A stretch of DNA of 63,843 bases, counting the filler, from Dugesia japonica (lineage: Eukaryota): assembly GCA_001938525.1 (NCBI GenBank). It is 7 parts of 7 records of this genome, joined end to end, with 100 filler letters (N's around TTAATTAATTAA, not from the genome) between each part and the next. Parts side by side here need not be neighbours in the genome. Positions count along the whole stretch, not along the records: positions 18,950 to 28,611 come from MQRL01645037.1; 6 more parts are not named here. The stretch is one strand, 5' to 3'. This document shows, in pieces, positions 6,201 to 48,060 of this stretch. Every line of letters begins with the position of its first letter. The stretch's first letter is position 1. The position numbers were made by a program, and so were the translations under genes. The notes beneath the pieces are model-generated. The model was not told the DNA's origin. It saw only the letters and a list, made by a program, of their open reading frames with translations, and did not search any database.

Positions 6201-9200
6201 CAATTATTATTTTCACTGATATTTACAGAGAGCACTTGAGCTTTATTAAGAAAATCATTAATTTCTACAAAATTTGGGTAGTTATTATTTAATATTTCAC
6301 TGAGTTGTTGATCTAAATTTTCAGTATTTTCTTTCATTATTTCTAAATCCTTCAATAAATCGATTTCTTCTTTGTNNNNNNNNNNNNNNNNNNNNNNNNN
6401 NNNNNNNNNNNNNNNNNNNNNNNNNNNNNNNNNNNNNNNNNNNNNNNNNNNNNNNNNNNNNNNNNNNNNNNNNNNNNNNNNNNNNNNNNNNNNNNNNNNN
6501 NNNNNNNNNNNNNNNNNNNNCTTTTCACAATTTAAAATTGATTTTGGATCTAAGTTAACGATATTATTTATCATATCTTTCATAACATTTAGATTATTAT
6601 CAGCGAAATCTAATGATTTCTCAATTGTTTCGAAATTTAAAATATCCTTCTTTTCATTGATTTTTGTATTTATTTCTACCAAATGATTGGATGTAGCATT
6701 TTTTATATTAATGAAATTAATTAAAAGATTTTGTAATTGTTCGTAGTCATCTTTTACTTTCTTTTGCTGAATTTCAATTTCCAATTTCATTTGATTTAAA
6801 TTTTCTTTATTCATAGCACTTTGATCAAATAAATCACAAATCTCTTGAACATTAATTGAGTTTCTACAAATTTCTAATTGGTTCTCAACATCCAAAACAT
6901 TACTCATCGTATTTTCGATTTCTTCTAATCGTTGATCCATATCTAAAATTGGATTGTTTTTTAAATAATCAATATCTTCAGTACATTTTTCGACATAAAA
7001 TCTCAAATTTGGATATTTATTCAACAAATCATTAATTGGTCCCAATGATGATTGCGTTGTGTTGATACAATTATTGATATTTTTCGATAGATTTGTTTGA
7101 ATGAGTGTAAATTTATCATTGAAAATAGGACTAACAAACGATAGATCATTGTTTTGAATTTTGAAAATTTTTTCTAAATCCATTAAAATTTTCTGCATTT
7201 CATCTTCAATATTATTTATTGAATTTTCAGGAGAAACTATTAAAATTTTTAATTGATCAATTGATCTATTAATATTATTAGAAATCAATTCCAATTCCGT
7301 ATTTAAATCCATTAATTTACTGTAATTTTCCATTGTAGATTTTATTTTATCTAAATCAACTAAATGTTTTTGTTGTTTTTCATCCAATTTATTTAAGAGT
7401 TTTCCATCATCATTTAAAAATTCTTCATTGATTTTATATTTAAAATTATCGATTTTATTTAATTGATTTTGGACATCATTCATCGCTTGTTTAATTAAAC
7501 TTGAAATGTCCTCGTTTTGAGATAGAGATTCATTCGTTAATGAAATTGTCGAATCACATGTTTCGATAACTCTATTAACCAACTCAATTTTTTCTTCATA
7601 ATTCTGATAATGATTTGATAATTTCAACTTCAAATTTTCAATAATATTATCTAATTCTGCAAAATTTTCATTGGGAAAATTAATTTTACAATTTTCTAAT
7701 TCAGATACTTGACAGTTCATTTGTTCTTCAAGTTGTTTTAATAATTCATAATTGTTTTCAATGACCTCTTTATCACTGTTTTCCCAACAAACCTTTTCAA
7801 ATTTATCGAGATATTCATTAAGACTACTTGTCAGTTCTATCCGTTGTTTTGTTAGTTGATCAAGTTTCTTTTTCTCTGTAGTAAATAAATGAATGTTTTC
7901 TTCTACAATAGTCTCGGTTATTTTCAATTCATTTTTCAAATTTTCAAATCTATCTTCAATGATTGATGACAAAGTCATTTGATTTCTTGAGAAATTTTCT
8001 TTCAAAATTTCCAACGATTCTTCTAATGGTAAAATCTGTTTTTGTAAATCGACAATATTTTTTCTTTGATTTAGTAATTGATTTTCATTATCTATCGGTT
8101 GATTTTTTATTTCCTTTTCAAAATTACTTTCCAAATTACTCAAATTTTCAACAAATACTTTACAATTTTCCATTAAATCGATTTTAGCAACACATAATTC
8201 TGAAATTTCCAAGCAATTTTTCAATGTTTTTTCAATTTGTTTGATTACTTTTTCATGAGATTGACAATTTGGAAATTTTTCCAGATGATTTTTGGATATT
8301 TCAGTATCGGATTTAATGGTTTCTAATTGTACTAAAGACGATTGTAGAAGAGAAATGATATCGTCAGCATATAATTGATTATCTGAATTTGTAATATCAT
8401 CAAATAATTGTAAACTAATACTATTGATAATTTGATTATTGCGCTCATTTTCCTGTTCGATTATTATTCCAAATTTCAAATCGATATTGTGATTAATATT
8501 TGTAATTTTGTCTTTGACAATATCGATTCCGGGATAAATATTAAAATTTTTCAAAAATTCTTTACCTTCTACAGGAATTATATCAATTAATTCAATTTCT
8601 TCAATTTTTTCTGTTGATTCATTAAGAATATTTTTTAATTCCAACATTTTTTCAATATTATCCATATTTATAAATTCAGTGGTATTTTCCAGATTTTCTA
8701 GTTTCGATAAATAAAAATTGATTTGATCCATTTTTACTTTATAATTGATTTCTACAGTTTGCATTATTGAATACATTTTGTCTAGATTTTCTATTGATAA
8801 ATTAGCATCTTTAAGTAATGGAACTTGGTCTTTTAATAGATAAATACAATTTTCTACAGAATGACAAAGTGGATAGATATCATTGGCAATTTCACAACAA
8901 AGTTCTTTCCATTTTTTAATGTCTTCAAGGGATTTAATATCAAATATACTCTGCTCTAATATATTCAGATTTCTTTGGGTATTTAATAAATTATCTGCAA
9001 TTTCTTTAACATCGGATTCATTAAAAATTTGATTATTGTCTTCATCAAAACTAGAATGAGCTACAACGATTTTCCTTAGGTTTTCATCTAATTTTTCCAA
9101 ATTATTATCAATTGAATTTTGGCATAGGTTTTTCTCTTCCAAAAGAACTGATTTAGCTTTATCAAGTGGAATTTTAATTATAGATTGTTTGAGTTCAGCA

Positions 9201-9870
9201 ATATCTGTTTCAATATTCAATACACAGTTTGATAGAATATTCTGAACAATTCCGATATTTAATTTCTTCACCGCTTCTTGTTTAAGTTCATCTAATTTTT
9301 CGAACTTTTCTTGACAAAAGTTTGACAGAAAATCTGTATAATCACGACTAAGTTGAGATTCATTTTGAGACTGAGTATTATAAATGAATTCTATTGATTT
9401 CTGAGCTTGAAGAAGTGTAGGATTCAGCATTTCATTTGATTTGATAATGTTCGGAACGATTGTTTCTTGTAGGTTTTCTACTGTCGCTTCTAAAATATCG
9501 ATTTCTTTTGTTATTGACAATCTTGTATTAATTAAAAATTTATTGTGTGTTAACACTTCAATTGATTTTGATTCAGCTAATTCACAGAGCTGTTGAATAT
9601 TCTCAATTGTAGGTAAAACCATATTGGCAATAGTTGGGTCTTTCAGTTCTAGTTCTGTGAATTTCGATTTAGTATTTTCTACCAGTTCTCTGTACATTTG
9701 TTGAATTTGTTCTACAATTCGTTCTTGTTGTCTTAGTTCCCCCAAAAAAATGTTTTCTTCTCCAATCGATATTAAATCAAATCGCTTAATTTGCGATTGA
9801 AAATCTCTAATCTTTTCCGTTTCATTTTCAGCTTCTTCTTTGAGTTTTATTGCCTGCGAAATGTTTGATC
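292..9870 (-). CDS. Internal exons of a giant coiled-coil / spectrin-repeat-like protein (nesprin/ANC-1/spectraplakin-like; family not resolved)
   Basis: ORFs 4628-9904 and 637-4587 join across the N gap 4646-4771 (…EKLSDEIEFKQQESIFDSNMEML…). Inferred exon 9870-646 (acceptor ttttag at 9871, donor CAG|gt at 645), 51-nt intron 595-645, exon 594-292 (SKRVDLESK…DKLM|gt). Over 3000 codons rich in E/K/N/I/L heptads with internal repeats. No CH or KASH domain visible. Confidence 0.8.
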
Positions 9871-10125
9871 CTAAAAATGTTAGCAACATTAAAAATGGAT
9901 TCAATAATATCTAAATTTTGACATTTTTATGTNATTATTTCTTGCAATACTTTGTTCTTTTGTATTAGCAAAAGCTTATAAAATTAATCTGAAATTCTAA
10001 TCGACAATTTTTTATTTACAATAATTTAAATGAGTATAACATTAGTATAAAATAAAATTTTATTCGAATTTTGGTGAAAAAACTAATAAAAATACCTTGT
10101 AAAATGAAAATATAAAATAATAATA

Positions 10126-10225
10126 NNNNNNNNNNNNNNNNNNNNNNNNNNNNNNNNNNNNNNNNNNNNTTAATTAATTAANNNNNNNNNNNNNNNNNNN
10201 NNNNNNNNNNNNNNNNNNNNNNNNN
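10126..10225. other. Artificial contig spacer N44-TTAATTAATTAA-N44
   Basis: Identical 100-nt structure with a six-frame stop linker; occurs six times in the window. Confidence 0.97.
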
Positions 10226-11179
10226 CGCTTGCAAATAGCCTTGCCAACTTATGTACCCCTTTTAAAAAAGGTTTGTTCTTAAATCGTAAGTATTAACACG
10301 GGATGTATCACATAAATTATCCACTGTTTCATATTCTAGCTGCACTTTGCTAATTTTCAAAAGAATCCTCTCACAGTAAATTAGCAATAATATTTTTGTA
10401 TTATTTGATAGCGTCATAGTATCTAATAATATTTTTCGAGTTAAACAAATAAGAATTATAAACTATTTTATTATAACTATATCTATAGTTAAAACTAAAT
10501 AAATAAATCGGGCTTTTTATGGTATGGATTACATGTATTAGTCATATAATAAGTCTTCTAAATATTTTATTGGAATTTTCAGTTACTTATACAATAATTC
10601 TCAATTCTTTGACAATTTTGGCAAACTGTTATTTTTCATTCTGTTACCTATTAAATTATGCTTATTATTAGTCATTATTATTCTAATATTAGTGTTATTA
10701 TTTATTGTGAGTTTTGTTACTGTTCGCTATAAAAGTATTAGTCAAAATTGTATTATTTTAATATTTTTTATAATTATAAATTATAATGATAATAATTATT
10801 ATTGTTATTAATATTCTTATATCCTTAAAGCAATCATTCAATTTCTTTTATGAGAGGTAGGTTGTTAAGCATTTTTTTCTTTTCATGTGTGACAGTCTAG
10901 CATCAATATGCGGTGACAGCAATGAAATTAGATAAATATCAACAGTTAAAATACAAAAGATTAAAGTTAACTAGTTTATTAAATATTATATTATAAAATG
11001 AATACAATGAATGTAAGATCGAACGAAAATAAAGAATTGTAGAAATTTAATTAAACATATTTATGCTAAAATTGTAATACTATAGTTGGGTGTACAAGAA
11101 CTTTGTTGTCGTTTTATTTAGAGTATAAAATTTAATGTGAATTCTATTATGTTATATGCTATATATTAATGATATAAAT

Positions 11180-11621
11180 CAAAGGTCTCAAACCCAAATG
11201 ATCTCTTGGGCCGCATTAAATAAAATTCGGTAGTCAACAGACCGCACTACTGCTGTGACTCACTATAACACTTCGTGCAACTCTATACAACATTACTAGT
11301 AATAGTATTATTAATAAAATCTATTATATTATATCGAATTTGTAAGGTAAATCTTACAAAGATAATTTATTCTTGAATAAATTGATCATTTTAATCATTT
11401 TCTATTGGCTTAAAATCTTCATAACCATTTCCTTATAGCATGCATATAATATATTAAAACATTAAGTAGGATCATTATTGCACACCATTGAAATATAATT
11501 TTTAAATACTATTTCAATTAGAAGCTATAACTATTTACAATCAAAGTAAAGCTGTAATTGTTGAAAAGTAATATTTGCTAGTCGCAATGAAGCATTGTGG
11601 GCCGCGTATTTGTCACCAATT
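11180..11621. mobile_element. Non-autonomous hAT (Charlie-like) MITE
   Basis: Left end CAAAGGTCTCAAAC…GGGCCGCA, right end GGGCCGCGTATTTGTCACC; 8-bp flanks ATATAAAT / AAATAAAT resemble a TSD. Confidence 0.5.
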
Positions 11622-11826
11622 AAATAAATATGCTATATATTATACTATATATTACAAAATGTGGTGACGACTTAAAAATATATTTGTTTGTACATATTTA
11701 TATATTGTATTGATCATGAACATTCGATTAAATTAAAACAAAATTTAAATTCATAATATTTTTAATAAATTTGAAAACATATTGGTTGTTATAAATTTTT
11801 TATTAATTAATATTATTATTAATATC

Positions 11827-11874
<48 letters not shown>

Positions 11875-12989
11875 TGTACAATTTTCTAAAAATATCAAAA
11901 TAGAAAATTTAGAAAACATTTTCCATTCCTATTCATTTTAAGCAACTAAAATAATAATAATTTATTATATTTTATTAGATTTTTTATAAAAAAAAATCAA
12001 CCGCAATAAGTACAAAATGATTTTTATTTTGTACAATGGATTAAAATTAACTTTTATTGATAATTTTAATTGAAAAAAATTTTTTTTTAAAAAAAAGTGA
12101 AATATAGAGAATTTCAAGTTAAACTTGAAATCGGGGCAATTCTCAGCAAAGTGTTAATTTCATTGCTAATTAAACAATTCAACGATGATCTCTGAATAGA
12201 AATGACNGATATAATTATGAAAACTATACAAATATCCTCAATACATACAAAATAAACAATCAATGCCAAAATGATGTTCAATTTATTTTTTTGGCATTAA
12301 GGATCGAAATTAATCAAGAGAAATTATTTTTTTTTATTTTCCATTTATCAAAATAATGCATTTCATTAGCGGATTTATTTTAAAAAATAACTAATTGAGT
12401 ATTTATTAATAGTTAATTTTTAAAATTAATACAAATAAAAAAAAACTGAGTCCTGTAATTTTAATTTTGAAATTTAATAATAAATAAAATATCATTAATC
12501 AAACAATTTACATTTCTCTATTCAAACAAAATATTCATTGTATTATCTAAAAGTAACAATAAATCAATTTGAATTTTCTTTGAATTATCGAGTATTTATT
12601 CAATAAATACGGTTTATGTATCTAAGATATTCTAATAATAGTGAGAACAGTTTGAGATTTTAACAATAGACATTCTTTTCATTTGGATGTTTAATGCGAT
12701 TTTTTAAATGTACACATAATGGTTAACATAAGCTAGAAAACAAAAAAAAACGATAAGATCTAAAATTCTGTAGAATAGTATTGTTATTTAATTTAATTGA
12801 CTGCAATTCATTCATATATGGAATACAATTATGTTTTCATATTTATAAGAGAAATAAACGTATCATTTTCATTTACATTCATGTTTATTTATTCTTTTAT
12901 TTAGTTTTCTCCAATCTGTATTATTTTTTCAAATGTCTAGTAACAATAGTTTTAATAATAATATAATTAACATTTGAATAATGATATCG

Positions 12990-13033
12990 AATTTTAATAA
13001 TACTAATAATACTAATAATACTAATATTAATAC

Positions 13034-13095
<62 letters not shown>

Positions 13096-13145
13096 NNNNN
13101 NNNNNNNNNNNNNNNNNNNNNNNNNNNNNNNNNNNNNNNNNNNNN

Positions 13146-13210
<65 letters not shown>
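12990..13210. repeat. (AAT)n microsatellite with gap; similar tracts at ~11810-11875, 37325-37420, 40690-40870, 50498-50564, 52572-52606
   Basis: Direct trinucleotide repeats. Confidence 0.95.
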
Positions 13211-13213
<3 letters not shown>

Positions 13214-13518
13214 GTTGAACCAATGTCAAAATTACGAATCTAAATAATTTTTAAAAAAAATTCTGTTTGATAAGTTTGAAATTTATTCGGGTATTGAGTC
13301 GTTATATGGATATAATTTAAATAGGTCTCATCGTTCGAAAAAAATATAAAATTTTAGCACTTTGTAAAATGGATTAATTAAAACTACTACTGAGTATATA
13401 AAAAAGAATTCAAAACAGTATAAGTAGATGAATTTGTTACATCCTAATATTAGGTTTCCTCTAGAGGAGGAAAGTATTGATATTTTGTTCTTGATCTTAT
13501 TCAAAATGTATTAAAAGC

Positions 13519-14760
13519 AGTAAGGGGATAGTAGCGCATGACGGCAATTTTTTTAAGCAGTTATCCGAGGGGGGCTAGGAAACACGTTACGCTTGAGTTG
13601 CGTTTTTTACTCGATAATTATTGATTATCGATTTTTGATCTGATTGATTATCGATTTTTGATCGGATCAGTTTTTTTGATCGGATCAGTTTTTTTTTGAG
13701 CGGATCAGATTTTTTTTTCATCGGATCAATTTTTTTAAAATCTTTATTTTTATCTTTTTTCATCTTTATTTTTCTTTTTTTTTACCATGTTGCAATTTTT
13801 AATAAAAAGTCTCATTACCGATGTAATTTTCCATTAAAAAAAACATATTGACATTGCAATTTTCCAAAATAAAACATTGGTGATGCAAATTTTTTATAAA
13901 AAACATTGGTGATACAATTTATCCATAAAAAACATTACTAGTGACAATATTTCTATGTTTTATTTTGGAAAATTGCAATGTCAATATGTTTTTTTTTAAT
14001 GGAAAATTACATCGGTAAAGAGACTTTTTATTAAAAATTGCAACACTAATGATACTTTTTATTAAAAATTACGACACTAATGAGATTTTGTATTAAAAAT
14101 TACAACACTAATGAGACTTTTTATTAAAAGTTACAACACTAATGAGACTTTTTATTTAAAAGTTGCAACACTAATGAGACTTTAATTAAAATTTGATCAG
14201 TAATATGCTTGTTTTATAAAAAATTACCTAGTTAAGATTTTTATGAAAAAAGTTCTATGTTTTTAAAATCTTGTAAAGAAAAGTTTTAATTTGAATATTA
14301 TATCATGAAAATATCAAAGTTTTTTGATAGATATATATTTATCGTGTTATTATCCTAAAGACGCCCCTCTTTGGTTATTTTTTTACCATATAGTTATATT
14401 TTATCATGAAAAATATTACAAAGACTCCCATTTTTGCCGTATTTTTGATATATTTTATCGAGAAAATAAACCATAGACTCTATTCTTTAAACTTTTTTCA
14501 TATATTTTATCATGATAATATCACAAAGACTTCCTTCTTTGAACTTTTTATTAGAATATTGTATCATAATAATATCACAAAGACTCCCATTTTTGCCGTA
14601 TTTTTGATATATTTTATCGAGAAAATAAACCAAAGACTACCCTCTTTAGTTATTTTTCATATATTTTATAATGAAAATATCACAAAGACTCCCCTCTTTG
14701 AACTTTTTTCATATATTTTATCACAAAAATTTCACAAAGACTCCCCTCTTTAAAGTTTTT
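13519..14760 (+). repeat. Putative terminal repeat region of a large DNA transposon: AGTA-N4-GATAGTAG terminus, then ~20-bp, 30-bp and ~53-bp tandem arrays
   Basis: Terminal motif at 13519; GATCGGATCAGTTTTTT units ~13620-13735; CAACACTAATGAGACTTTTTATTAAAAATT units ~14010-14190; ~53-bp CACAAAGACTCCC units ~14350-14760. Confidence 0.55.
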
Positions 14761-14889
14761 CATGTGTTTAAATAAAAGAGTTGAAAAAACTGTTCGTCAA
14801 GAGTTCAACAGCATAATCGTTTTATGGTAGTAGTAATATTGTTGAGCATAAAAATTNAAATAAAAGTAATTACAATGCAAATGTACAAC

Positions 14890-15320
14890 AATATAACCTA
14901 ATAAACGAATATTAGTCCCAAAAACTGTTTGGCATGGTGATAATTCTGAATCTTCCCCCGCCGTGTTACGGATTACTAACATTGCTAATGGAAGATTTTC
15001 TAACCAGCTACGTTCAGCATTAGTTCATTGAGTCCCTAGAGCATTCTTTAGAGACCTTTGGAGTCTTTCTATTTTCTCATTGCACTGGGGGTGGTATGGT
15101 GCTGTATGCCTATGTTCAATTCTAAAATAATTGCAGAAATCGTTAAATTTATCAGATATAAATTGTCTACCATTGTTGCTTACTATTATCTCTGGTACTT
15201 TGAAGCGAAATATCGATTCTTTAGTTAAGGCTTTTAGCACGAATTCGGATGAAATTTCATTCAGAGCCACTACTTCTGTTCATGAAGTATCAGGATCAAT
15301 CATTGTTAGTATAAAGAAAT
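14890..15320 (-). pseudogene. Ty3/gypsy integrase (rve core) fragment
   Basis: IIVSNNGRQFIS…HTAPYHPQCNEKIERLQRSLK…WLENLPLAMLVIRNT…SPCQTVFG matches the DNGxQF / YHPQxNGxxER pattern; internal stop. Confidence 0.85.
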
Positions 15321-15339
15321 AATTATTATTTAATATTTT

Positions 15340-17040
15340 TTTTGCTTGAATGGTCAAACCTTTCCTCAGCATTATTAATTTTTGGGCGATTTATGTGAAA
15401 AGTGTCAAAGGTTTTCTCGATGAGGTCGAATATGGTCAATTTTAGAATGGTTTAGAGTAATTTTTAGGTGATTTGGTTGTATTGTTTCCTTAGGATTGGA
15501 AGATCTTTGGGTGATTTTGCAGGTTTTCCACAAGATTAGTCAATTTGGGTCAGTTTTGTAAAAATTGATCAATTATTTACTCGGTTTAAGTGATTTGGTC
15601 AATTATTTCTTCAGGATTGGTTAGTTTGGGTCAATTTTGGACAATTTGGTCAATTATTTACTCACAAATGTTAGTTTTGGGTGAATTTGAATGATAATTT
15701 ACTCGGGCTGGCCAGTTTGGGTTGAAATTTTAAAAAATTAATGGTAAAAGTCGAATTTGTTCATGTTGTTTAAATAATTTGAAAGTTTAAAATTTTTTAA
15801 ATCAAACTTTTATGAGAATCTGGGCGAACAATCGAAATATTTTAAAAAATATGTTATACATATCAGATTTCAAAGATTTTTATACTAAACTGCTGAGAAC
15901 TTTACTGCGATCATTTTCCACAAATACAAAATTTTCGAAAATATTTTCTTTTTCAAATAGGTTAAGAAAGTGTCTATTCAATAGTGAATTTTATGCTGAC
16001 TCAAAATATGTTAACCTAAATTTACCCAAATGAATACTCAATGTAATAAATAGGGTTTTGTGATAAAAAAATGTTAAATTTTGAATATTTGTACTCAATT
16101 TTCTCTTCCTACATAACTCGCATGGTTTCAAATTTAGTATTATTTTACTCAGGAGGAAAATGTGACAATGCAAAGTAAAAATATCGTCTTGGTAAAAATG
16201 CTTCCTAATGAATATGTTCGCCGTCCTTCCGAATTTTAGTAACATTTTTCGAAAACATAAAAATTATCTCAAAGATATCCAACTAGGTATTTCGTAGATA
16301 GAGACTTTTTCACTGATTTCAAATATGTAAACTTAAAATCATCAAACATTATAGATAAAAAGTTATATTGGAAAAACAAGTACTTACTTTGGGTGTCCCT
16401 GAAGAAAAAATGAATTTTAAAAAGAGTAACTGCAACTTAATTAGAACGTAGTTTATTTGATAGAGACCTTTATACTGATTATGGAAGACCTAGTTAAAAA
16501 TCACTACATTTTGTCTGGAGCTCTGAAAAATGGGATAAAACCGAGAATTTTTGACAATGTTTTAGTCTTTCTTCTCAAACCGTAACGAAACATGCATTAT
16601 TCGATAGAAAAATTTTCACCAATCATAAAAAACATCACCTAAAATCACATAATTTAATGTTGACAGAGAAAATTTGAAAGAACATGGTTAAAAATTCCAA
16701 GGCTACTTAACCGACACAAATAAAAAAATATTTTTTATAATTTTCATCTAAATTAAATGGTCCAAGTACTATTAGATAGAGAATGTTTTACTGATCTAGA
16801 ATATATACAGTAAAAATTTGTGAAAATAAATTTTTTTTAAAAAGTTAAAAGTTTTTAATTCTCAATAATTAATTAAAAATAAAAAGTATCTCAACCAGTA
16901 ATAATAAGTAATTATAAACCAGTTTATAGGATAGAGAAGTTTACACTGATTCCAAATATATTAACTTAAAATCATCAAATTGTATAGATAAGTTATTGCA
17001 ACAACAAAGTATTTAACTTAGGAATCCACGAAGTAATACT
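15340..17040 (+). repeat. Dispersed modular repeat family; inverted copy at ~58305-59830
   Basis: GGTCAATTATTTACTC-type short units followed by recurring GATAGAGA…ACTGATT.CAAATAT…AACTTAAAATCA modules; 16860-17040 aligns by eye with the reverse complement of ~58305-58490. Confidence 0.65.
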
Positions 17041-21057: not shown

Positions 21058-23165
21058 CAAGGGGCTCAAAGGTTTATGTATGGGGGAACCATTTTTGAAA
21101 ATGTTAAAATACTGAAAAGCCACAAAATTTTCAACATAAACTTCAATTGAAATTTATTTTTATTGCTATAATTAATTAATAACTAAACACATTACTTTTT
21201 AAATTTTATACTATTAACAAATTTATTAAATACAAAGAAAACTTCAATAATTACATTTAAAAATTATTTGTAAAATCTGAAATATGTGTCCAAAAATTTA
21301 TCGTTTTTGCTTAACGAGAATTTTCAAATCGGGTTCATAATTTGTTAGATATGTCTTTAATAATTCAGTTAAATGGATATATGTTAGCTGTGAACGATGT
21401 TTATTTTTAACAAATTTTATAGTTGAATAAAATTATTTACAATTATAAGTGGTTCCGAATATAGACAATATTCGAACCACGAAATTAATTAAATTTGGAT
21501 ATTTGGATTCCGAAACAAGTTTCCAAAAGTCTATTATGGATTCTATTGATTTGTGCTCGATGATTATTGCTTCATCTGCCTGAATTTCTATCAACTCTAA
21601 TTTCAAGTTTGCAGAATTAGAAAGGATGACCTCAAGTATATTAAATCGTTCTTCAATAACATCCACTAGAAATGGATTTAAGAAAATTTTTATAGAAAAT
21701 TTCAAAGTTTTCAAATCTGAAAATCTCGACTTGAAACCTGAAAACAATTCTTTCAATTTATTTTGATATTCACTTAATTTTTCATTTGAAATTTTAAGTT
21801 GACTTTCTTTTAGACGAGGAAAATAATTTAAATCGTTAAAGATCAAATCTTTTTCATAAATTTGAATTTTCTTTTGAAAACTAAAAATTGTGTGGCACAG
21901 ATTGCTGACGAGTTTTTCTTTACCTTGTAATTCCAAATTCAGATTTTGTAAATGTTGCATGAAATCTGATAAAAAAATTATATCTAGTTTCCAATTATAA
22001 TTATTAAAATTACATAAAACATTATTTATCTGTCCTATAGTATATTTTTTGCTTTATCCGTTTTTTTGCTTCTTCTAGTAATTTTGTTTTATTTTGAAGA
22101 TAACAAGTAATTGGATTTAGTAGTTCTAGAAATTTATTTAATACATTATACGTGGATAACAACCTGACGATGTAATAAAAAAGCACACCATTTGAAATAT
22201 ATTTGTCTCAGGATTCAAAAAATTTTTAAACTGATGATGATTTTTTGCATTAGCTCGTATATAATTAATTGCATAGAAAACAGTATTCATGACATTTTAA
22301 TATTTGAAGTGCTTGGTAATGAGTTGTTCTCGATGCAATATGCAGTGTACTGAAAGATATTTGGGTATATTATGATATTTTATAAAGAGTCCTGTAAAGC
22401 CATTTATACTTCCTACCATAGCAGGAGTACCATAAGTTGCAATGCTTACCAATTTGTTAATAGGAATATCAAAATCGATTAACATTTTATCAAATGAATT
22501 TTTATTTTCGATACCGCGAGTTAATTCTTTAAGAGAAACTAAATCCAATAATTCTTCTTTTATAGTTATATCAGATAAAATAAAACGTATAAAAACCGCT
22601 AACTGTGGAGTACCATTAATATAAGTTGACTCATCTAGGGCCAAACTAAAGGCGTTATAGTTTTTAATATCAATTTTAAGTTTTTCAACTTTATCTAGAC
22701 ATATATCTGTAATACGTCTTTCTACAGTGGATCGAGATGTGGGAATTTTTGATATTTTTTTTATGTAATTTTGAATTCTCAGGATTTATAATTTTAACTA
22801 TATTTTTCAAATTTTTCTTAATAAATTCTCCTTCTATATATGGACGTTTGCCTCGTGTGATATTCCATGCCATGACATAACTTGCTTCCTTTAAATTGTC
22901 ATCTACATTGTTGAAAATGGAGAGAAAAAATTGTTGTTTCTCGAGTTCATTTTTAAATAGTTTAATTTTATCTTTTTTTAACTTTGTTTTTTCAGGGGAT
23001 GTGGAGTGGAAATCGGTGTGAATTGCATGGTAGTGCCTTCATAAATTTCAAAATTGAAAATGCATAATGGTTTTCCATTATTATTTATGAACAAAAAGTT
23101 TTGTTCCCACTTTTCATTAAAACTTCGTTTCTCTTCTTCATATTTTCTTTTTTAGCCTTATCCAT
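21058..23165 (-). mobile_element. Decayed hAT transposon, Charlie/SPIN (GTF2IRD2/EPM2AIP1-like) transposase
   Basis: RSFNEKWEQNFLF, LALDEST…QLAVFIR, HCILHREQL, HLQNLNLELQG, SIFGTTYNC motifs with stops and frameshifts; TIR-like CAAGGGGCTCAAA at 21058. Confidence 0.9.
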
Positions 23166-23231
23166 GATAACTCTAAAATATTTTTAAAATTTTTAGCAAT
23201 CATGAATAATAAAATACTAAATAATTAATGA

Positions 23232-24342
23232 TTATATGGAGAAGATGCCGTAAATTTCGTGAGTTTTATGCTAGATTATTATATGTATGGTAAGGCCTAT
23301 GGATGGCCAGAAAAAATCATGGTAATTCGATTGCCATTATATCTAAAAAGAACTGCTAGAGATGCGTACTGTCAGTTAGAGGCTTCGCAATTGGGTAGCT
23401 AGGCACATTGCAAAGATGCATTAGTCGAAAAATTAGTTAGTGAAGATGTGGGTAGAATTATGAGAAAGAAATTCTTTAATCGAGTACAAAATGAAGGAGA
23501 GTCGGTGAATGAATTCGCTTTTGAGTTGAGTACTTTAGCCGAGAAAGCCTTCAGATTGCGAGAAAACTAGGGAGATCATATTAAAAATATTTTTGCAAGA
23601 TCAATTTCTAATGGAAGCACAATCAAGTAATAGAACAGCGCTTAGTTTAGTAGATTATCAGGATTTTGATGATCTCGTTAAAAAAGCCAGACGAATTGAA
23701 GTAAATTCTGCGGCGACAACAAAAGCTCCTACAGTAAATTACACTGAGACGGCAAAATTTCAGAGACCTGAACCAGAAAGTCCAAATTTTAGAAAAGGGT
23801 CAAATTTCAAACCAAGAACATTTAATCCACCGTCGCCAAGGAATAATAGACCATCTCCAAAATATGAGAGAAATAGCAATTTTCAACAAAACGCGTTAAA
23901 AAGGACAGTGAAAGGTTTTAGGTGTCAACTTAAAGGACATACTGCAAATCAATGTCTTACAAAATTGGGTAATGGAGGAAATCGTGAAAGCAGGAGAACA
24001 ATACAATGTAATAATTGTGGACGAATTGGACATTTATATAGAGATTGTTACGCTCCAAAGTCGCGTTGTCCATCAACCTCTCCATCTCCGCAAAGAAATA
24101 CATTAAATTCCAAAGGCCAACAACAATGTTATTCATGTCAGAAATATGGTCATATTGCAAGATCATGTCCAAATAATGTTGATCGATTCCAAAAACCAAT
24201 TTTAAAGAAATCAGTCAAAATTGATAACAATCCTAGAGTTAATTCCACCTTTTCCCCATATAATCATGAAAGAATAAAATTTGAGGCAGAATTAGATGAA
24301 ATGAGACGAAGGACTCAGATAGCGATAACGAAAACTCAATGA
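23232..24342 (+). pseudogene. gag: Gag: capsid plus three CCHC zinc knuckles
   Basis: KAYGWPEK…LPLYLKRTARDAY…RVQNEGESVNEFAFELSTLAEKAF (major-homology-like region); knuckles (C>G)FRCQLKGHTANQC, CNNCGRIGHLYRDC, CYSCQKYGHIARSC. Confidence 0.9.
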
Positions 24343-24672
24343 TATTTTTAGAAAATGATCCACAAATTGGATGTGAAATACCAAATCTTCTTGGTCAAAT
24401 TTCACCTATGATAGACGATGTCGTAGTAAATAAAAGCCAAATTTTATACTCACATTTTTCAGCTAATATCGAAAATTGCGAATGAGATATGGAGGAGATT
24501 TTGGTAATTTTGCAATAGTTAATAAAACTGAATTTGCCTTTAGAAAAATTAGAAAATGTTATGAAGAAATGTATTTATAATTGTAATAATGGAGCTAAAC
24601 ACGTTTTGGAATTGAAACTCATCATGACAAAGATTGGACAAGAAATGTGCAAAAATTTCGTGGTTAGAAGAT

Positions 24673-24886
24673 GTATATGTAGTGTTTATTGATAACAATG
24701 GAGATAAACTTACAAAACCTATTAGTGCTTATAGTACAGTCAGAGACTTATTTCAGATGATTGGTGAATCCAAGGAATTGAAAATTGTGAAAATGAAATT
24801 TGCTAATNAAACTTTGGAGGATATAGATGCTTATATTGTGGATCTAGAAATGATCCCCGGAATGGAAAATGAAGTTACGATTTTAC
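24673..24886 (+). pseudogene. Ubiquitin-like (beta-grasp) domain within the retroelement polyprotein
   Basis: VYVVFIDNNGDKLTKPISAYSTVRDLFQMI…MKFANxTLEDIDAYIVDLEM…EVTIL parallels ubiquitin IFVKTLTGKTITLEV…TIENVK…LIFAGKQLEDGRTLSDYNI…TLHL; same frame as the zinc-knuckle ORF. Confidence 0.55.
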
Positions 24887-25627
24887 AATTTCACGAGATA
24901 ATAAAGACGGTACCTCAAGCAACAGAGTTGATTTTATTACGTAAATTACAATGCGAATTAGAGAGTAAAAATGATGATAAAATCCAAATGGTACTGCATG
25001 ACATATTGAGCATGCCAAAAGGAGGCAGTATGAAACGTGATTTTATCTAATTATTGGTACCGTATTTGTATACAATGCATAAAAATAAAATTAAACTAGA
25101 AATGTAAAAATTTGGAAAAGAGTTTAGAGAGGAAAAAGCCAATTTTCCTCCTTTTATACTAAAATAGACATGGATCTATGTGGAATTAAATATTGTAAAC
25201 TAAACAAGTTTAACGAAAATTCAGCGAACAAGAGATAATTGTGGACTTTCGCGAATTGTTGATGAGATGATGAAAATCTCAGAGAACCAATGTAACGTTA
25301 GGGATCGCATTGAGTGCAAAGAACTTTTAATGGGATTACAAAGTGAGATATACCCATGATAGAGAATAAAAAGTATTAAAAGAATTTATACTAGAGATAT
25401 GGCGGACAACTTATTCGAATTTGTCCAATTATAATGATTGAGATAAATAAAACTCCTGACGAAGACAAGGTCGAAATATCGATTTGTTATCCAATATCAA
25501 TAATTAAAACCTAAATTTTGATCNNNNNNNNNNNNNNNNNNNNNNNNNNNNNNNNNNNNNNNNNNNNNNNNNNNNNNNNNNNNNNNNNNNNNNNNNNNNN
25601 NNNNNNNNNNNNNNNNNNNNNNNNNNT

Positions 25628-25888
25628 GGATTGGCATTTCTAATTCAGCAAATGGGAATTTATATTTCAGTTGATTATCAAAATATGGGCGATATGATTG
25701 AAGAAGTATTGAAAATAATCCTAAAATATATGTATCCGTTTGTCCAAAAACCAGGAGGCTGGGAATTTCTGGGAAACGTGAGAAAAATCGAACGAAAAAG
25801 TTCTATGTTTTCAACGGGATTCAGAGGTGTCTCACCGTGGTTAATAATAATGATTCTTACGATTGGGTTGGTAAATTACACAACTTCG
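25628..25888 (+). pseudogene. Bcl-2-like C-terminal half (BH2) plus hydrophobic anchor
   Basis: GLAFLIQQMG…IILKYMYPFVQKPGGWEFL resembles the BH2 motif (WIxxxGGWxxF) with Bcl-2-like spacing from the post-BH1 AF, followed by a basic linker and PWLIIMILTIGLV; BH1 would fall in the N gap 25524-25626. Confidence 0.55.
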
Positions 25889-28008
25889 TTAACAGCATAT
25901 GACTGTTCACAAACTGAATTAGGAAAAGTTTATTCTTTAGTTGATGTAGCAGAATGTCCAGAAGCCCACCAATTGAAACTGAAAACTGAGGAAAATGTAC
26001 CTTATTATATCTATCAAGAGTTAGGATTTTGTCGGACAACAGTTAGAGAATGCATAGTTAAACGAACAACTTTTATCTTTTATTGTGAAAAATGGAGTCA
26101 TTCATCATTGATATAGTTTAAATCAATGCCTAGGCCAGTGGACATAACGCAAGAAAATTGCGAATCGGCTTTTTAGACTAAAGAGATTAAAATTAATGCA
26201 GAAATTAAACTATCTGCTAAAAAGAATTTTATTATCCGATAATCATTTACAGTAAAAAGGAAGCTTATGAGTAATGGAGATTGTACTGGAGAACCTTATA
26301 AAATTGGGAATAATATTGTTGATAAAGTAATGGTAGTTGAAGAGTACTCGACTGAGTTACGAGAATTTGAAGGGACTTTTAAAGATGTAACAGGAAAATT
26401 ACAAACTCATGCGTTTTGTGATATATATAGCACTAGCTGTCATACAGGAAAATCTATGCTTGTGTATAAAGTTAAAGTAAAAGAATGTAATTTAGCTTAA
26501 TTGAGACAGACAGAGTTTATTGAAATTACTGGAGAGCAATTTAAAATTAATCTAGACGTCTCTAATTTCCCCAAGGATAAGGGAAACAGCAGTAGACAAA
26601 CATTACCTGTTGAAAAAAGTAAAACACAAACTGTGCTGGTGACATTAGTAAAAGAAGAAGTTATGAGATTTATTAGAAAGGATCCAATTGTGAAATGTGG
26701 TAAAACATTGTATGAAACGAATTATAAAAGGGTGTATGTGTCAAAAACAAAAATGGAAGATGCAAAAGAGAATATACATGTTTCGGAAGTAAAGCTAACA
26801 CAATATTTTAATAATAAGATAGACTTTCTTTTTCATTTTCATACTAAAACAATATCAAACATATATAGTGAAATAATACTAAATGACTGTAAATCAAATA
26901 GAGAAATTTTACGGAATCGGATGGCAATGGTAATGAATAATCCAAATGTGGTTGCACCTTTGCTTATAGTTGAAAATTGAGTATTTGCTCGAGTAATGAG
27001 GAAAGTATTATATAGCTACAAATGTAAAGAGGTGTCAGTCAAACTAATGAAATATGATGAGTGTACTAACGGATTGCCAGTCAACGTAGGTGGAATGTTG
27101 AGATTCATGGAACCTATAACAAGAGTCTTATTAGATAAAGATACAAAACCAAAAAATTGTATTGCAATCGATTATAAGCACCTTTGTATAAATTAACTCC
27201 AGATACGTGAATATCACTGCCGGATCGAAAGCAAGTTAAAAAACCGGAAAAACTGGAAATGACAAAATTAGACTATTTACTAAATTTTACAGCATTGGGA
27301 AAATTGTCATCTTCAGGAATCTATTCAACTGAAAACATTGAGAACGCGAGACGGAATTTGCTATTCCCATCAAAAAGAGAAAGAATTATAACGGAATTTG
27401 TAGACAGGATACTACCTAGTAGAGCGGAAAGTGTAAATTACGATTATTTATTCTCTCCAGATCATTACAAAAAAACTACTTTAAATACTATGAAAAATAT
27501 ATGAGGACATTTTTTGTATTTTGGACAAGTAACGTCCAGCTTTATTGGAGGGTATTTGTTATGGAAATTCTCAAGAGTAGTGATTTCTTACGTATTATCT
27601 ACGTACAGATTATATACCATGTTTGGGCTTTCATTGAAATTAATTGTGGGATGTATACCATTCCTTGCAAAATTTTTAATAATTACTCACCAATTTAATG
27701 AAATGAGGAGGATAAAGGAGCAAGTTTCGAGTAGCAAACAAAATAAAAGGAAAAAGAAACACATAAATCGGAATAAGCATGTCAAATTCCAAGATAAAAC
27801 TGACGATAGTAGCAGTACCGAGAATGATAACACTAACAGTGCAAGTACTAGTGGTACATTGAACGTGGATAATGTTGTAAATAGCACTCAATCGTTATTT
27901 TCAGTTGAGGATTGGAACACTTATAAAATAAAACGTATTCCAGAGATGATTAAAGATCCAAATTACTATCAATCTCAGCCACCATGTTATCCAATGGGGT
28001 CATTATAA
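25889..28008 (+). pseudogene. env: Chuvirus/Jingchuvirales-like envelope fusion glycoprotein
   Basis: AYDC…SLVDVAEC…VREC…YC.KWSHSS, GDCTG, KCG…ETNY, YFNNKIDF, YKCKEVSV…CTNGLPV…FMEPITRVL, SGIYS…RRNLLFP, then hydrophobic segments FGQVTSSFIGGYLLW…MFGLSLKLIVG; several stops and one frameshift near 27155. Confidence 0.8.
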
Positions 28009-28107
28009 GAAATGAAATTTATTGAAATTAATGAGTTTGGTAATGATAAAAAGAAAATAGATATTGAAACAGAAAGATGAAATATTTTGGGATTACCGAC
28101 TAATTAT

Positions 28108-28290
28108 GTGTTGATGAAAATCGCAAATTTCGGCAGACAACCAAAAATCACAGTGCAATTAAATGGAATTTCTATAAAAGCAATACTAGATTCAGGTTGT
28201 AGTGTAACTATTATTTCAGAGGAAATTCTAGATCCAGGAGATCTAGTTAATATGACAACTACAGAAGAAATAATTCGATCAATGTCAAAA
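28108..28290 (+). pseudogene. Retropepsin-type aspartic protease, N-terminal part
   Basis: PKITVQLNGISIKAILDSGCSVTIISE (DSG at 28189-28197), same frame as the Env C-terminus; homology is lost after ~28290. Confidence 0.85.
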
Positions 28291-28611
28291 ATGCTAAAGA
28301 TTTGGTTGTTGTTGGACAAAAACTTGGTCTTTATATTGTCTAAAAGACTTATGAGGTTGGATGCATGGTTTGTCTTAGAAGTGTGGTAGCGCCAAGAAAC
28401 AGTGGTATGAGTTATCGTGTGGTGTTTTTTGGGGGTTGTAGGTTTGTATGTGGTTGGGTTAGGGTTATAGGTATGTGATTTTCATTGTATGTGTGAGTAG
28501 ATGGATAGTGGCAGTCCTCACCACGCACACATTTAGTACCCCCCCCCGCCGTGACGTAACGTAATGAAATTTAATCCTAATGTATTTAGTTGGGAATTTA
28601 AAAATTGCATC

Positions 28612-29573: not shown

Positions 29574-30835
29574 TCAAACAAAATCATTGAATAATAAGTA
29601 TTTCTCAAAGAATTGATCTTCCATTAATTGATCAATTGTTGCTCTCTTTTTTGGTTCTTTTTTCACACAACTATCGATAAAATTGAATAAATATTCTGGT
29701 TGGTTTATTCTAGTTTTATCATATTCAATTGTCTGTGATTCCTTGATCTTTTGAACTATTTCAGATTCTTTTAATCGAGGAAATAATTGACCGTCTTTAA
29801 TTAAATAATAAAATAAATAATAATCAATATAATAATCACGTGTGATAATTTCTATCATAATAACACCAAGTGACCACACATCAACACTCGCATCATAAGG
29901 TTTACTTTCCAATATTTCTGGTGCAACATATGTCAAGATACCATCTCTATGTTTACATTTATCAACGTCTTCATCATCAAGATGATTCAAATATTCAGTC
30001 ATATTGAAACTTAATAATTTGACATCACGATTGCCATCAATCCAAATATCGATTGCTAATATAATCATTATACTTCATTTACATAATTAATAATATTACG
30101 ATTCAAGTCTTTCATAATTATATTATGATTGTGCAAATGTTTCAGCCCTGCTAGGATCTGATATGCCCATTTAGATATTTCATATGTTGATGTTTCATAG
30201 TTTACAAGAAAGGTTTTCATTGGTTTCTTCATTAAAAAATAGTTATTAATAAATATCATAATTTATACGAACAAATGCAACCTTTGTCGCATTCTCCATT
30301 TCTATATAGACACGGTTTTTACCAATATAAATATCAAACAGTTTCATAAATCTTGAATGAGATTTGGTTATTTTAAACATTTGTAAATCGTCTATCAAAA
30401 TCCTTGATAAATCGTTATTATGTGCATTTTCCATGTATTTCATGTCGTATCCTTTCAACAAGGCTGGCCTAATTTTGTTTGTCCGAGTAAACAGATTAAT
30501 AGGATCAAAATCACTCAGTATTTGAATATCTTTATCTTCATCTAAACTATATTTTATAATTAATTTTTAATTTATAATAAATATTAATTAATTAAATGAT
30601 TAATAAATACACACCTTTTGAAATAACAAAATTCCACCAATGATTTACTATCAATATTATATTCATAAATGAATTTATCATTTTGCAGTACTGTTTTATT
30701 TAAAAATATAACAAAATCATTGGTTGCCATTTTGTGTTGTATTTTCTGAATAGATTTGTTGATAATGTTTGATACTTTTTCGGATTTTGAGAATTCAATT
30801 GATATTGTTTCTTTATCAGTGAAAATTGATTTCAT
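29574..30835 (-). CDS. Ubiquitin-like domain + Ser/Thr pseudokinase, multi-exon; 5' end uncertain
   Basis: Introns 30542-30612 (donor uncertain), 30227-30281, 30056-30099 and 29795-29839 restore one frame: ALLK…EMENAT…YQILAGLKHLHNHNIIMKDLNPIDIWID…VKLLSFN…GILTYVAPEIL…DVWSLGV…PKKRAT. First exon TISIEF…VLQNDKFIYEYNIDSKSLVEF is Ubl-like. Confidence 0.75.
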
Positions 30836-33849: not shown

Positions 33850-34816
33850 GAGTATTTACTTCTCGGATATAAATTTTTTTCTATGTTCCCAAAAATTATT
33901 TCATCACTTTCATCATTTTCCTCTTCATAAATGGCATGGACTTGTTTGATACGACTCCTATCTTTTGTTTTATGTCCGCTTTTAAAATTGTGTCTTTCTT
34001 TTAATCTTGGCTTGTTCATGTTCAAATAACATTTTTCAGCTCAGTGACTTGGGCTTTTACATTTATTGCATATAATTTCTGTGCACATCCTTCTGATGTG
34101 ACCAATCTTACCACACCCAAAACATTTTAGAGGCTCCTTGTCTGGACAGTTTCTACTTAAATGCCCTTTCATGTGGCAAGTCCAGCATTCTACTTGAGAA
34201 TTTTTCGGACACTCTTTTTGTCTGCTCATAACTCTGGCATGCACAACACTTAGGTTCTGTTTTTTCCTGTTCTTCTTTTGTTGATGGTATCTTCTCTACA
34301 TGCAACTACCACGTTACACTTTACTTCATTAATAGGTTCTCTTCTTTCTATTTTTGAGTTTCATTTTATATATTTTACTTTATCCAATTTTCACATGATT
34401 ATCTTTTTTTCTGCTTTTAATTATTAAAATTTTTGAAAAGATCTTTTCTCTTGTCAGATTTAAAAATTACTAAATATTTATCGACTAAATCTTCCACTAT
34501 TTTAAAAACACCACAAGTCCTTCATTAGCATGTCAATAGTTTACAAGATTGTGGAAATATTTTATTACGTCACTATTGCTCTCGAAAGCTAATTGCAATC
34601 TTCCTTGATATCTAGCAACTTTTTAAAATATTTTTGCATATGCCTCTATTAGTTCTTTATCAAGCATACATGTTGTTAAGCTCTCCGGATCTTTTTTATT
34701 AACGATGCCCTTTGTCTCGAAGTATATTTCACACCGTTTCTAGATCATCGCCTCTGCAAAATATCTTTGACAACACTCTCTCTATGATGGAATCGGAGTT
34801 TACCACTTTCACCATG
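33850..34816 (-). pseudogene. gag: Ty3/gypsy gag remnant with three zinc knuckles
   Basis: CWTCHMKGHLSRNC, CFGCGKIGHIRRMC, CNKCKSPSH*; upstream region decayed. Confidence 0.75.
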
Positions 34817-42875: not shown

Positions 42876-43981
42876 TGGCGTCAGAAGCTGAATTGGTTAT
42901 TGTAAAAAACTAAAGCATTAAATCGTAACTAAAGAAGAAGCGCCTATCACTGTTTTATCTAGATGAATACCGATAGGACTTGGGGATAAAGTTGATAATT
43001 TAGTTGAAGATTTATTAAAAAAGAAATAATCAGGAAAAGACCGTGGAATGTACCTTTAGTGTGTATCACTAAGGCAATGGTGGCATATTATTATGTGCAG
43101 ATTACCGGCAGTTAAACTTAATCACAACCAGACCAATATATCCAATTCCAGAAACTNATCAGCTTTTTGATGCACTGGGTGGAGCAAAGATATTTAGCGT
43201 TTTAGACTTATTTAATGGATAATATAATGTCGAAGAAATAAGGTGGCTAAAAAACAGCATTCTTTACTAGAAGAGGGCAGTATGAATTTAATAGAATGCC
43301 ATTTGGCCTGAGTTCAGCCCCAGCAATATTTCAACGACTTATGCATCTGATATTGCAAAATGAAAATTGGGAACAATGTTTTATTTATCTGGACGATGTT
43401 TTGATATTTGGAAACTTGTATGAACAACATCTCAGTCGATTGGAAGTAGTTTTAGTTATAATAGAAGAATTGGGAGTTGAATTAAAACCTACAAATGTAA
43501 TGTTATGCTAAAGGAAGTTTCGTATCTGGGACATAGAATTACGATAGAAGGTATAAAAAATAATCTAATAAAGATAGAAAAGTTCAAAATTGGTCAAAAC
43601 CAGGGTGTTACTCAAATCTACATTCTTTTAAAGCTTTCTGTAAATATTATAGAAAATTTATAAAAGATTTCGCGTACGTCGTTCAACCTTTAGAAACTAT
43701 ACTGAAACAAGACAAACAAAGAATAAATGAGAAATAAAGCAATAAACCAATAATTTTGGATGCTGAAGGAAAAAAAGCATTTTAAAAACATACAGGAACT
43801 TTTAACAACAGCCACAGTTATATCTTATCCTCTTAAAGAAGGTATGTTCATATTAGACACAGATGCAAGTCACAGTCATATTAGATGAATCTTAAGCTAA
43901 TTTCAAAATGGAGATGAAAAAGTCATCGCATATACGTCGAAGAAGCTGACAAATTCAGAATTGAAATATTGTGTTACTCGC
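42876..43981 (+). mobile_element. pol: Ty3/gypsy remnant: PBS-like site, reverse transcriptase and RNase H
   Basis: CA|TGGCGTCAGAAG PBS-like; CADYRQLN, MPFGLSSAPAIFQR, YLDD, FILDTDAS, VIAYTSKKL; many stops and frameshifts. Confidence 0.9.
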
Positions 43982-47035: not shown

Positions 47036-48060
47036 TCAAAGCCTCACACGCAATTCTTTCAAAATAGTTACCAAAACTGTTAACTCAGCAATGTTTATTT
47101 TGCCTTTTTTATTTTTGCAGCAACAGGCATGATCTAAAACCGAACTTTTCCTGTTCAATTGCATATGCTCGCTAACACGTGTGCGAAGATGACGTTTTGT
47201 CTCTCCAATGTTCGTGGCATCACACCTGTTATAATTAAATTGATAAACTAGGTTAGCGAGCAAATTAGCGAGTAGTAGATTTTTTGCTTAAATAACTGGA
47301 GGTTGTTTTTAGTGAAAATTAATATAAATTTATTATCATCAAAATATTTCATGAGTGATGCTTTTAATGATTTAGATCCTTCCGAGATGGTAGTTTTATA
47401 GTAATTTTTTGATTATTTTTAATTTTTTCTTCTTGGTCATTATTTGATGTTGAGCACAGTTTGTTTAGAGTACAACTTATATTATTATAAATCGTTTTTT
47501 GGTTATATCCATTAGCTCGAAGACTACTATTTAATCTGTTAAGACCATCATCAGCAATCTCAAAGCTTGATGATATACACCACACTCGATGAACCAAACC
47601 TTTTATTGATCCATTCTTATATCGATCATCACAAAAACTTTTAGGAGTGGTGTCTGTCCTGTGTCTGTTGGTTTTTTTATAACGTGAAGTATTATAGTTG
47701 CGACCCTGTCTACAAACAAGAACATCTAAGAATTGTAGTTTACCTTCTTTTTCAATTTCTTTAGTGAATTGCATATTTGGATGAAGACTGTTCATATATT
47801 CAAGGAAAGGTCATATATCTACTCGGTCTTTAAAAATAAGGAAGATATCATCTACGTATCTTTTGTATTCTATGGGTTGATTACCAGAAAAATTAGTAAT
47901 ACTAGACTCAATTTTAGACAAAAATTATGATGCTAATGTTGGTGCCACCTTAGAACCCATTGCAACACCATCTTTTTGAGTGAACCAGTCATTATTGAAT
48001 AAAAAATTAACAACTTTCCACACTTCTTTTTAAGTTGAATTAAATCTTTCCAAGAAGTTA
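47036..48060 (-). mobile_element. Penelope-like element (RT + GIY-YIG endonuclease), decayed
   Basis: QKDGVAMGS, YKRYVDDIF, NSLHPNMQFTKEIEKEGKLQFLDV, LVYQF…CDATNIGETKRHLRTRVSEH. Confidence 0.9.

Follow-up and report, generated by a model that had tools for sequence, protein, structure and literature searches.

A decayed retroelement copy in Dugesia japonica with a fusion glycoprotein between Gag and protease, probably from a compact Burro-type family

How did a chuvirus-like fusion glycoprotein come to lie between a Gag and a protease in the genome of Dugesia japonica, and were these parts once made as a single protein? The locus occupies positions 23232-28291 on the + strand of a 63,843-nucleotide (nt) window, which is the whole stretch of DNA that was analysed and to which all coordinates refer. 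The first-pass annotation had traced it to an ancestral single Gag-accessory-Env-Pol polyprotein of gypsy type, possibly related to the planarian Burro elements, and this proposal is supported by a natural 503-amino-acid (aa) protein (P0157), by relatives in which several of the parts share one chain and by a published layout. We put at roughly 0.85 the probability that the locus is a dead copy of a repeated Ty3/gypsy-type retroelement whose ancestor encoded Gag, a helical and ubiquitin-like (Ubl) portion, a Bcl-2-like domain, a class III fusogen and Pol as one polyprotein.

Three-frame translation, Pfam matches and profiles built from the relatives place capsid, knuckles, Ubl, Bcl-2-like domain, glycoprotein and retropepsin in this order, collinear and on the same strand, as had been claimed. 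The capsid region (23235-23700, +) is retrotrans_gag-like and 5'-truncated, about 59 residues shorter at its N-terminus than P0157, and carries two stops and one frameshift near 23590. Its own match to PF03732 (E = 0.002) falls below the cut-off, while P0157, to which it is 71% identical over 120 aa and 62% over 242 aa by tblastn, passes it, so that the call of a gypsy-type capsid holds insofar as a PF03732-type Gag is, as we assume, gypsy-type. In the nucleocapsid (23914-24168, +; motif scan, PF00098 E = 6e-10), two of the three CX2CX4HX4C knuckles originally listed are canonical (24007 and 24127), and the one at 23914 has lost its first Cys; all three are intact in P0157. That protein runs in one frame from Gag through the knuckles and into the region beyond them, matching there with 36% identity over 80 aa an acidic linker plus a short helical module 5' of the Ubl, which we place at 24312-24650 (+) from the reading frame of P0157 and a weak match to a helical-module profile (24462-24641, E = 1.4-3).

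The Ubl, weak in this copy, lies at 24680-24890 (+, start approximate) by match to the relatives' profile, and is followed by a probably helical stretch (24900-25300, +) that contains indels and a weak second helical-profile match (25069-25149, E = 1.6). The Bcl-2-like domain (25300-25770, +, start placed by eye), likewise recognised with the relatives' profile, is split by an insertion that leaves its BH2-like part 3' of a gap. A hydrophobic segment at 25817-25897 (+), picked out by hydropathy and its context, then leads into the glycoprotein (25898-27792, +; frameshift near 27150), whose identity as a chuvirus-like (HSV/gB-type, class III) fusion protein is confirmed by PF24664 with E-values of 1e-44 and 1e-29 for two X-read segments. 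Its C-terminal membrane region lies at about 27505-27690; sequence comparison with the PDB gave no match for the glycoprotein, and a motif scan for furin-type sites found none in the ectodomain segments and only one K-x-K-R, in the tail. The Env cytoplasmic tail and linker (27793-28137, +) share one frame with the protease across stops at 28006 and 28078, as first described. The retropepsin, also correctly recognised (PF00077 E = 2e-4, above the cut-off), is represented by its N-terminal half (28138-28291, +), with the catalytic Asp at 28189; this Asp and the Gly are the same in every one of the 11 aligned rows. This copy stops within the protease at 28291 and has no reverse transcriptase (RT) after it, and beyond that position other copies read on differently.

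The Ubl and Bcl-2-like modules, both part of the initial proposal, stand on the relatives and not on Pfam, which detects neither in the window segments. Profiles built from five natural relatives and run on the six-frame translation of the whole 64-kb window peak at the expected sites: the best Ubl match in the entire window is at 24727-24882 (E = 0.027) and the best Bcl-2 match at 25631-25765 (E = 0.03). The relatives' alignment of the helical and Ubl portions (A2) matches the ubiquilin UBL with E = 0.001. ESM Atlas returned only leads below 0.9 for residues 380-545 of the relative P0006, some of them ubiquitin- or SUMO-like, and a homologue search with the Ubl region of the window gave no match among 87 candidates. 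For the Bcl-2-like domain the informative relative is P0090, which is 39% identical to the stretch of the window that runs from BH2 through the hydrophobic segment to the start of Env, and which by sequence finds only Bcl-xL-type chains in the PDB (best E = 0.056). When its model was compared by VIA, ranks 1-31 were all Bcl-2-fold chains (best Z 8.9, root-mean-square deviation (rmsd) 4.0, 111 aligned), and Bcl-2-fold chains filled all the Foldseek rows seen. We consider the Bcl-2-like domain well supported for the lineage and likely in this copy, where the Ubl is likely as well. Four relatives share a four-helix module that precedes the Ubl, and a model of it from one of them is a four-helix bundle whose structural matches are generic helical repeats (best Z 6.2, rmsd 4.0, 93 aligned). 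A TFIIS N-terminal-like identity for this module was considered and dropped, no such chain having stood out.

The copy itself is doubly truncated, and it is dead because it carries 23 stops in 1,629 codons, spread over six frame segments, together with frameshifts and a repeat inserted in its Bcl-2 part. The roughly 3.7 kb of extra coding sequence reported between knuckles and protease is real as a coding insert, although here it is not a single frame, being broken into six segments with an N gap and a secondary insertion. Relative to other copies there are short deletions near 24308, 25203 and 27957, the one near 25203 being of unknown size and seen from loose ends against those copies. The secondary insertion (25453-25630, no strand assigned) is a very-high-copy repeat that includes a 103-N gap and is foreign to the element, as judged from depth and loose ends: its summed depth is about 3e5, loose ends fall at 25454 and 25523, and one contig joins 25452 directly to 25631, that is, without the repeat at that site. 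A second copy of the repeat lies at 59405-59472. One RNA run yielded 395 reads over the element, mostly less than 95% alike and from both strands, and a second run yielded 0, results that say nothing firm about expression.

The repeat inserted at 25453-25630 opens with a hammerhead-core-like motif at 25456, a type of motif typical of Penelope-like elements and retrozymes. We rejected it as a hammerhead, since four motif matches stand against 1.25 expected, 6 of 100 shuffles reach as many, the fold z is -0.64 and Rfam gives no hammerhead match.

Could the glycoprotein and its neighbours have been brought together by accident, as a nested insertion or an assembly chimera that set a chuvirus-type glycoprotein and host Bcl-2 and Ubl pieces between an ordinary gypsy gag and pro? 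The scaffold has many N gaps, one of them within the element, none of the contigs listed spans the whole stretch, and solo chuvirus glycoprotein fossils beside gypsy fragments are common in arthropods according to the portion of PMC10084718 consulted. Against this, in three of three DNA runs the summed contig depth is about 1,600-15,700 across 23032-28365, compared with 60-290 on the flanking hAT remnant, and while summed contig depth is no copy number, it is as high over the insert as over Gag and protease, with no drop. Thousands of partly diverged contigs match the element in the same three runs, which means that it is a repeat of the host genome. From linker to Ubl, 24330-24852 is covered by one contig of 522 nt (depth 257, with one gap), and ungapped contigs of 424-475 nt (depth 277-580) bridge 27969-28291, from Env tail to protease, in three runs; at about 83-85% identity these bridging contigs suggest a younger sister subfamily. 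Many natural single-chain relatives have the same order, and apart from the short repeat at 25453-25630 nothing foreign was found within the element.

The stops tell the same story. Between 24150 and 25450 there are 11 in-frame stops, six of which appear among the 40 of 86 difference rows seen, where each is read otherwise in 76-100% of the depth; two env stops (among 40 of 1,063 difference rows seen) are likewise private to this copy. All stops that could be compared are thus peculiarities of this copy and not a conserved feature separating gag, env and protease. Because of the even high depth, the private stops, the reading of P0157 into the insert and the single-chain relatives, the element, repeated as it is, is not a chimera; this explanation is largely refuted and scarcely credible.

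To place the glycoprotein among its relatives, we used the Env segment as a HMMER query, which returned 774 proteins at E <= 0.001, and scanned for domains 23 long or top-scoring proteins from the 150 listed. In 11 of these 23 the glycoprotein (PF24664) and a retropepsin occur in one chain, and of those 11 five also have RT-RNase H and four an integrase. Relatives in the Env clade with the order protease, RT, RNase H and integrase are P0011, P0013, P0018 and P0019, and a knuckle 5' and a protease motif 3' of the glycoprotein were found in P0008, P0013, P0014, P0019 and P0022. P0006 holds Gag, knuckle, Ubl, Bcl-2 and Env within one open reading frame (ORF). By profile, Ubl and Bcl-2 are both present in P0006 and P0007 and Ubl only in P0008 and P0013, and neither profile matched in P0014, P0019 or P0022. 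The spacing from knuckle to Env is about 517 aa here after subtraction of the insertion, 601 in P0006 and 613 in P0008. In a FastTree tree of Env (102 of 152 rows; dropped rows covered fewer than 280 query positions or spanned at least 600), the window Env belongs to a starred clade (96) of 16 rows that includes 11 of the 13 labelled as polyproteins and lies apart from the stand-alone glycoproteins of 600-850 aa; over these 102 rows the tree's group labels showed no significant clustering.

Several relatives have peculiarities of their own. In P0019, P0014 and P0022, which are pared down to Gag, Env and protease, just 220-320 aa separate the knuckle from Env, and P0008, P0009, P0011, P0012, P0020 and P0022 carry two to four tandem retropepsin-like domains 3' of the glycoprotein. 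P0011, P0013 and P0018 have long C-terminal extensions past the integrase with more hydrophobic segments, possibly a second surface protein. P0013, whose order is knuckle-Env-protease-RT-RNase H-integrase, is filed under a Flavobacteriaceae metagenome-assembled genome, probably through eukaryotic contamination of a bacterial bin.

These relatives also bear on how the ancestor was translated. Readthrough before the protease is common in retroviruses, and one could suppose the same order of parts with Env and Pol expressed by programmed readthrough of a stop, or by frameshifting, at the boundary of tail and protease. Two in-frame stops do stand between tail and protease here, and PMC13524379 speaks of 'ORFs arranged as GAG-ENV-POL', its main text using neither 'in-frame' nor 'polyprotein'. 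However, in 11 relatives a single predicted protein runs from the glycoprotein into the protease, the two stops within about 115 linker codons are in keeping with the overall 23 in 1,629, and env lies in frame in Burro according to PMC6431247. We regard programmed expression at this junction as very improbable.

If the ancestor was a single polyprotein, how would its parts have reached the correct sides of a membrane? The hydrophobic stretch at 25817-25873, which comes next after the BH2-like motif, closes with small residues and then meets a YDC/FDC motif, which opens the glycoprotein in the window and in 12 relatives; in P0090 the equivalent hydrophobic segment can be aligned to the tail at the C-terminus of full-length Bcl-xL. 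It is thus likely, on this positional reasoning, that the Bcl-2 tail anchor doubles as the signal sequence of Env. At the C-terminus of Env, the first of two hydrophobic segments is strong (1.72-2.41) and the second weaker (1.01-1.71) in ten of ten relatives. From the established rules for signal anchors and stop-transfer sequences, we propose that the Gag-Ubl-Bcl-2 part would remain cytosolic while the segment after Bcl-2, acting as internal signal and anchor, would thread the Env ectodomain into the lumen of the endoplasmic reticulum. Cleavage by signal peptidase ahead of the conserved YDC would leave Gag-Ubl-Bcl-2 tethered to the membrane, and one stop-transfer helix at the C-terminus of Env would bring the chain back to the cytosol, where protease, RT, RNase H and integrase would stay attached to the Env tail until released by the element's protease. 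In this way one membrane would receive capsid, fusogen and enzymes in a 1:1:1 ratio for budding, and the putative role of the Bcl-2-like domain would be to bind BH3 proteins and delay the death of the producing cell. The complete scheme, a flavivirus-like topology acquired through in-frame capture of Bcl-2, in which the anchored Gag-Ubl-Bcl-2 piece both nucleates budding and blocks apoptosis and the Ubl and Bcl-2 cassettes are optional, we offer tentatively, at somewhat less than even odds. The idea of a tail anchor serving as signal was not found in the parts of the literature searched, though PMC13524379 describes ectodomains with a transmembrane domain on either side.

A number of observations weigh against a single ancestral polyprotein of this composition. 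The junction stops at 28006 and 28078 are not among the difference rows seen, so that their loss in other copies is not directly visible, and no single relative retrieved combines Gag, Ubl, Bcl-2, Env, protease and RT. The assignment to gypsy rests on Gag and on the relatives because this copy holds no long terminal repeat (LTR), primer site or RT. Both accessory signals are weak in the window (E about 0.03), the Ubl region had no match when compared directly with P0006 by BLAST, and the P0090 model has a mean predicted local distance difference test score (pLDDT) of 45.5 and no Foldseek match at E <= 0.001. Given the deletion near 25203, the compactness of this copy may overstate that of the family, and at the Env C-terminus the copy reverses the pattern of its relatives, with the second hydrophobic segment at 2.13 and the first at 1.07; a chain with two membrane passes would have Pol in the lumen.

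The scaffold around the element is AT-rich and interrupted by N gaps, and the element, which is A-rich, has a G+C content of 0.32 as against 0.25 in the left flank; in genomes of such composition, coding DNA tends toward higher G+C and A-richness. The truncated Gag abuts a hAT transposase remnant on the - strand (21433-22785, reaching 23236; PF05699, PF14291), which is itself cut at about 23236, beyond which other hAT copies read differently. On the other side, from 28292, a very-high-copy GT-rich repeat unrelated to the element adjoins the cut protease. No LTR pair was found among the window repeats seen, the copy being truncated at both ends. The GT-rich DNA past 28291 was rejected as an LTR partner, as it pairs with nothing seen in the window; only 28561-28611 has a window match, at 60173-60223. 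A CA-rich stretch (62600-63430) and the GT-rich 28292-28560 both have strong strand skew, with no match between the two.

Elsewhere in the window, protein kinase exons lie 3' of the element (29574-30566, -; PF00069 E = 2e-19 for 29574-30074). Separate decayed gypsy pieces include RT-RNase H (43076-43978, +), an integrase core (14860-15327, -) and knuckles (34047-34208, -); we discarded the RT and integrase pieces as parts of this copy, given that they are far off and the integrase is on the opposite strand. Two very long open frames of 1,378 and 1,760 aa at 637-9910 (-), with N gaps inside, are helical repeat-like; Pfam gives nothing above cut-off for them, and at a guess they may be one giant exon of a spectrin/nesprin-like host gene. 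By eye, 47364-47810 (-) and 61585-61926 (-) resemble remnants of a Penelope-type RT C-terminus and GIY-YIG endonuclease.

The first-pass annotation had implied that this layout is new, which it is not. An in-frame env between BCL2 and protease was reported in 2019 (PMC6431247) and a catalogue of GAG-ENV-POL elements in 2026 (PMC13524379), and the present locus is a decayed fragment of a further compact Burro-type GAG-ENV-POL family that is not Burro1. What it adds is one more compact family, evidence that Ubl and Bcl-2 cargo and an in-frame fusogen also occur outside giant Burro elements, together with a concrete model in which one polyprotein would bring its capsid, fusogen and enzymes each to the correct face of a membrane. 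Of lasting interest are the model of the tail anchor as signal and the uneven occurrence of Ubl and Bcl-2 cassettes. Infectivity and anti-apoptotic activity are putative; if the Bcl-2 domain works, an endogenous retroelement would control host cell death in an animal that relies on stem-cell turnover. Arkhipova and Yushenova raised the idea of element control over host cell death (PMC6431247), and no test of it was found in the portions of the literature searched.

How, then, does the locus compare with known systems? Earlier descriptions of Burro/GYPSM1, known to us through review, are reportedly those of Grohme et al. 2018 and Jurka 2007. The 2019 account (Arkhipova and Yushenova; PMC6431247) gives the Burro layout as Gag-Ubi2-BCL2-env in frame-protease, with a Ubi2/SUMO-like motif upstream, and describes Burro1-4/GYPSM1 as longer than 30 kb, with an ORF of about 4,900-5,100 aa, a dUTPase, long LTRs and BIR and ankyrin cargo. 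As in Burro, the element has a retrotrans_gag Gag with CCHC knuckles (three in Burro, two canonical here), then a Ubi2/SUMO-like and a BCL2-like motif before env (here weak but best-in-window profile matches), and an env between BCL2 and protease, which in Burro matches mononegavirus fusion glycoproteins according to the same text. The single ORF of Burro is broken here, where one frame persists at the Env-protease junction, the stops elsewhere are private and the relatives are single chains. Unlike in Burro, no MATH, Smc, BIR, ankyrin or midasin-like cargo was detected from Gag to protease (about 1,630 codons); in particular, Pfam finds no MATH_TRAF_C between knuckles and Ubl, where there are only about 170 codons, collinear with P0157 and with a bridging contig. 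The absence of MATH sets the element apart from Burro1 itself and not from the wider group, because a Burro-like ORF1 of D. tigrina also lacks MATH (PMC6431247, in the part consulted).

One might still take the copy for an internally deleted remnant of a giant Burro proper, its compactness due to decay and its cargo of MATH, Smc, BIR and ankyrin lost from an ORF of about 4,900 aa. The three knuckles, Ubl, BCL2 and in-frame env all match, the consulted text of PMC6431247 reports decaying Burro fragments from Dugesia japonica, and near 25203, if not elsewhere too, the copy has lost a stretch of unknown length. Yet P0157 and a high-depth contig are collinear with it over knuckle, linker, helical module and Ubl, just where Burro1 has MATH, natural relatives share the short knuckle-to-Env spacing, and, of the published Envs compared, the nearest are those of Smed_errantivirus_1 and _2, which by our reading are elements of about 2,900 codons. 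A deleted giant Burro is accordingly unlikely, if less so than the other alternatives, and we retain the compact single-polyprotein family. Other work adds that BURRO1 RNA rises after smedwi-2 knockdown (PMC8532177), and the consulted parts of PMC12440569, PMC13238120 and PMC11410931 hold nothing further on layout.

Anakin elements of mosquitoes (Dezordi et al. 2020; PMC7642597) resemble the locus in that an LTR retroelement has taken up a glycoprotein of the same family; they probably differ in their BEL/Pao backbone and also in that the text consulted notes no Bcl-2 or Ubl cargo, as opposed to the PF03732-type Gag here and the gypsy-like Pol of the relatives. The closest comparison is with the GAG-ENV-POL elements with HSV/gB-type ENV described from Nematoda, Bryozoa and Platyhelminthes by Chary and Hayashi (eLife 2026; PMC13524379), six of them in Schmidtea mediterranea (Smed_errantivirus_1-6). 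The main text of that paper makes no mention of Bcl, ubiquitin, apoptosis or Burro, its figures and full sequences lying outside our comparison. It lists Smed_errantivirus_1 and _2 as multi-copy (45 and 215 copies) and as 14.8-kb regions, which, less apparent 3-kb flanks on each side, would leave about 2,900 codons; we dropped a reading of these two as giant Burro elements from the 14.8-kb coordinates. Like them, the locus has env between gag and pol and an HSV/gB-type Env; unlike them, it is dead in this copy, with a Pol reduced to half a protease. Over the first 100 printed columns, compared by eye, the window Env is identical to Smed_errantivirus_2 at 57 and to Smed_errantivirus_1 at 53, while Smed_1 and Smed_2 share 64% and both are 32-38% identical to Smed_3-6. 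These figures point to a planarian host and to a distinct family, and from the sequence comparison it appears to be a compact sister of Smed_errantivirus_1 and _2 with the layout of Burro.

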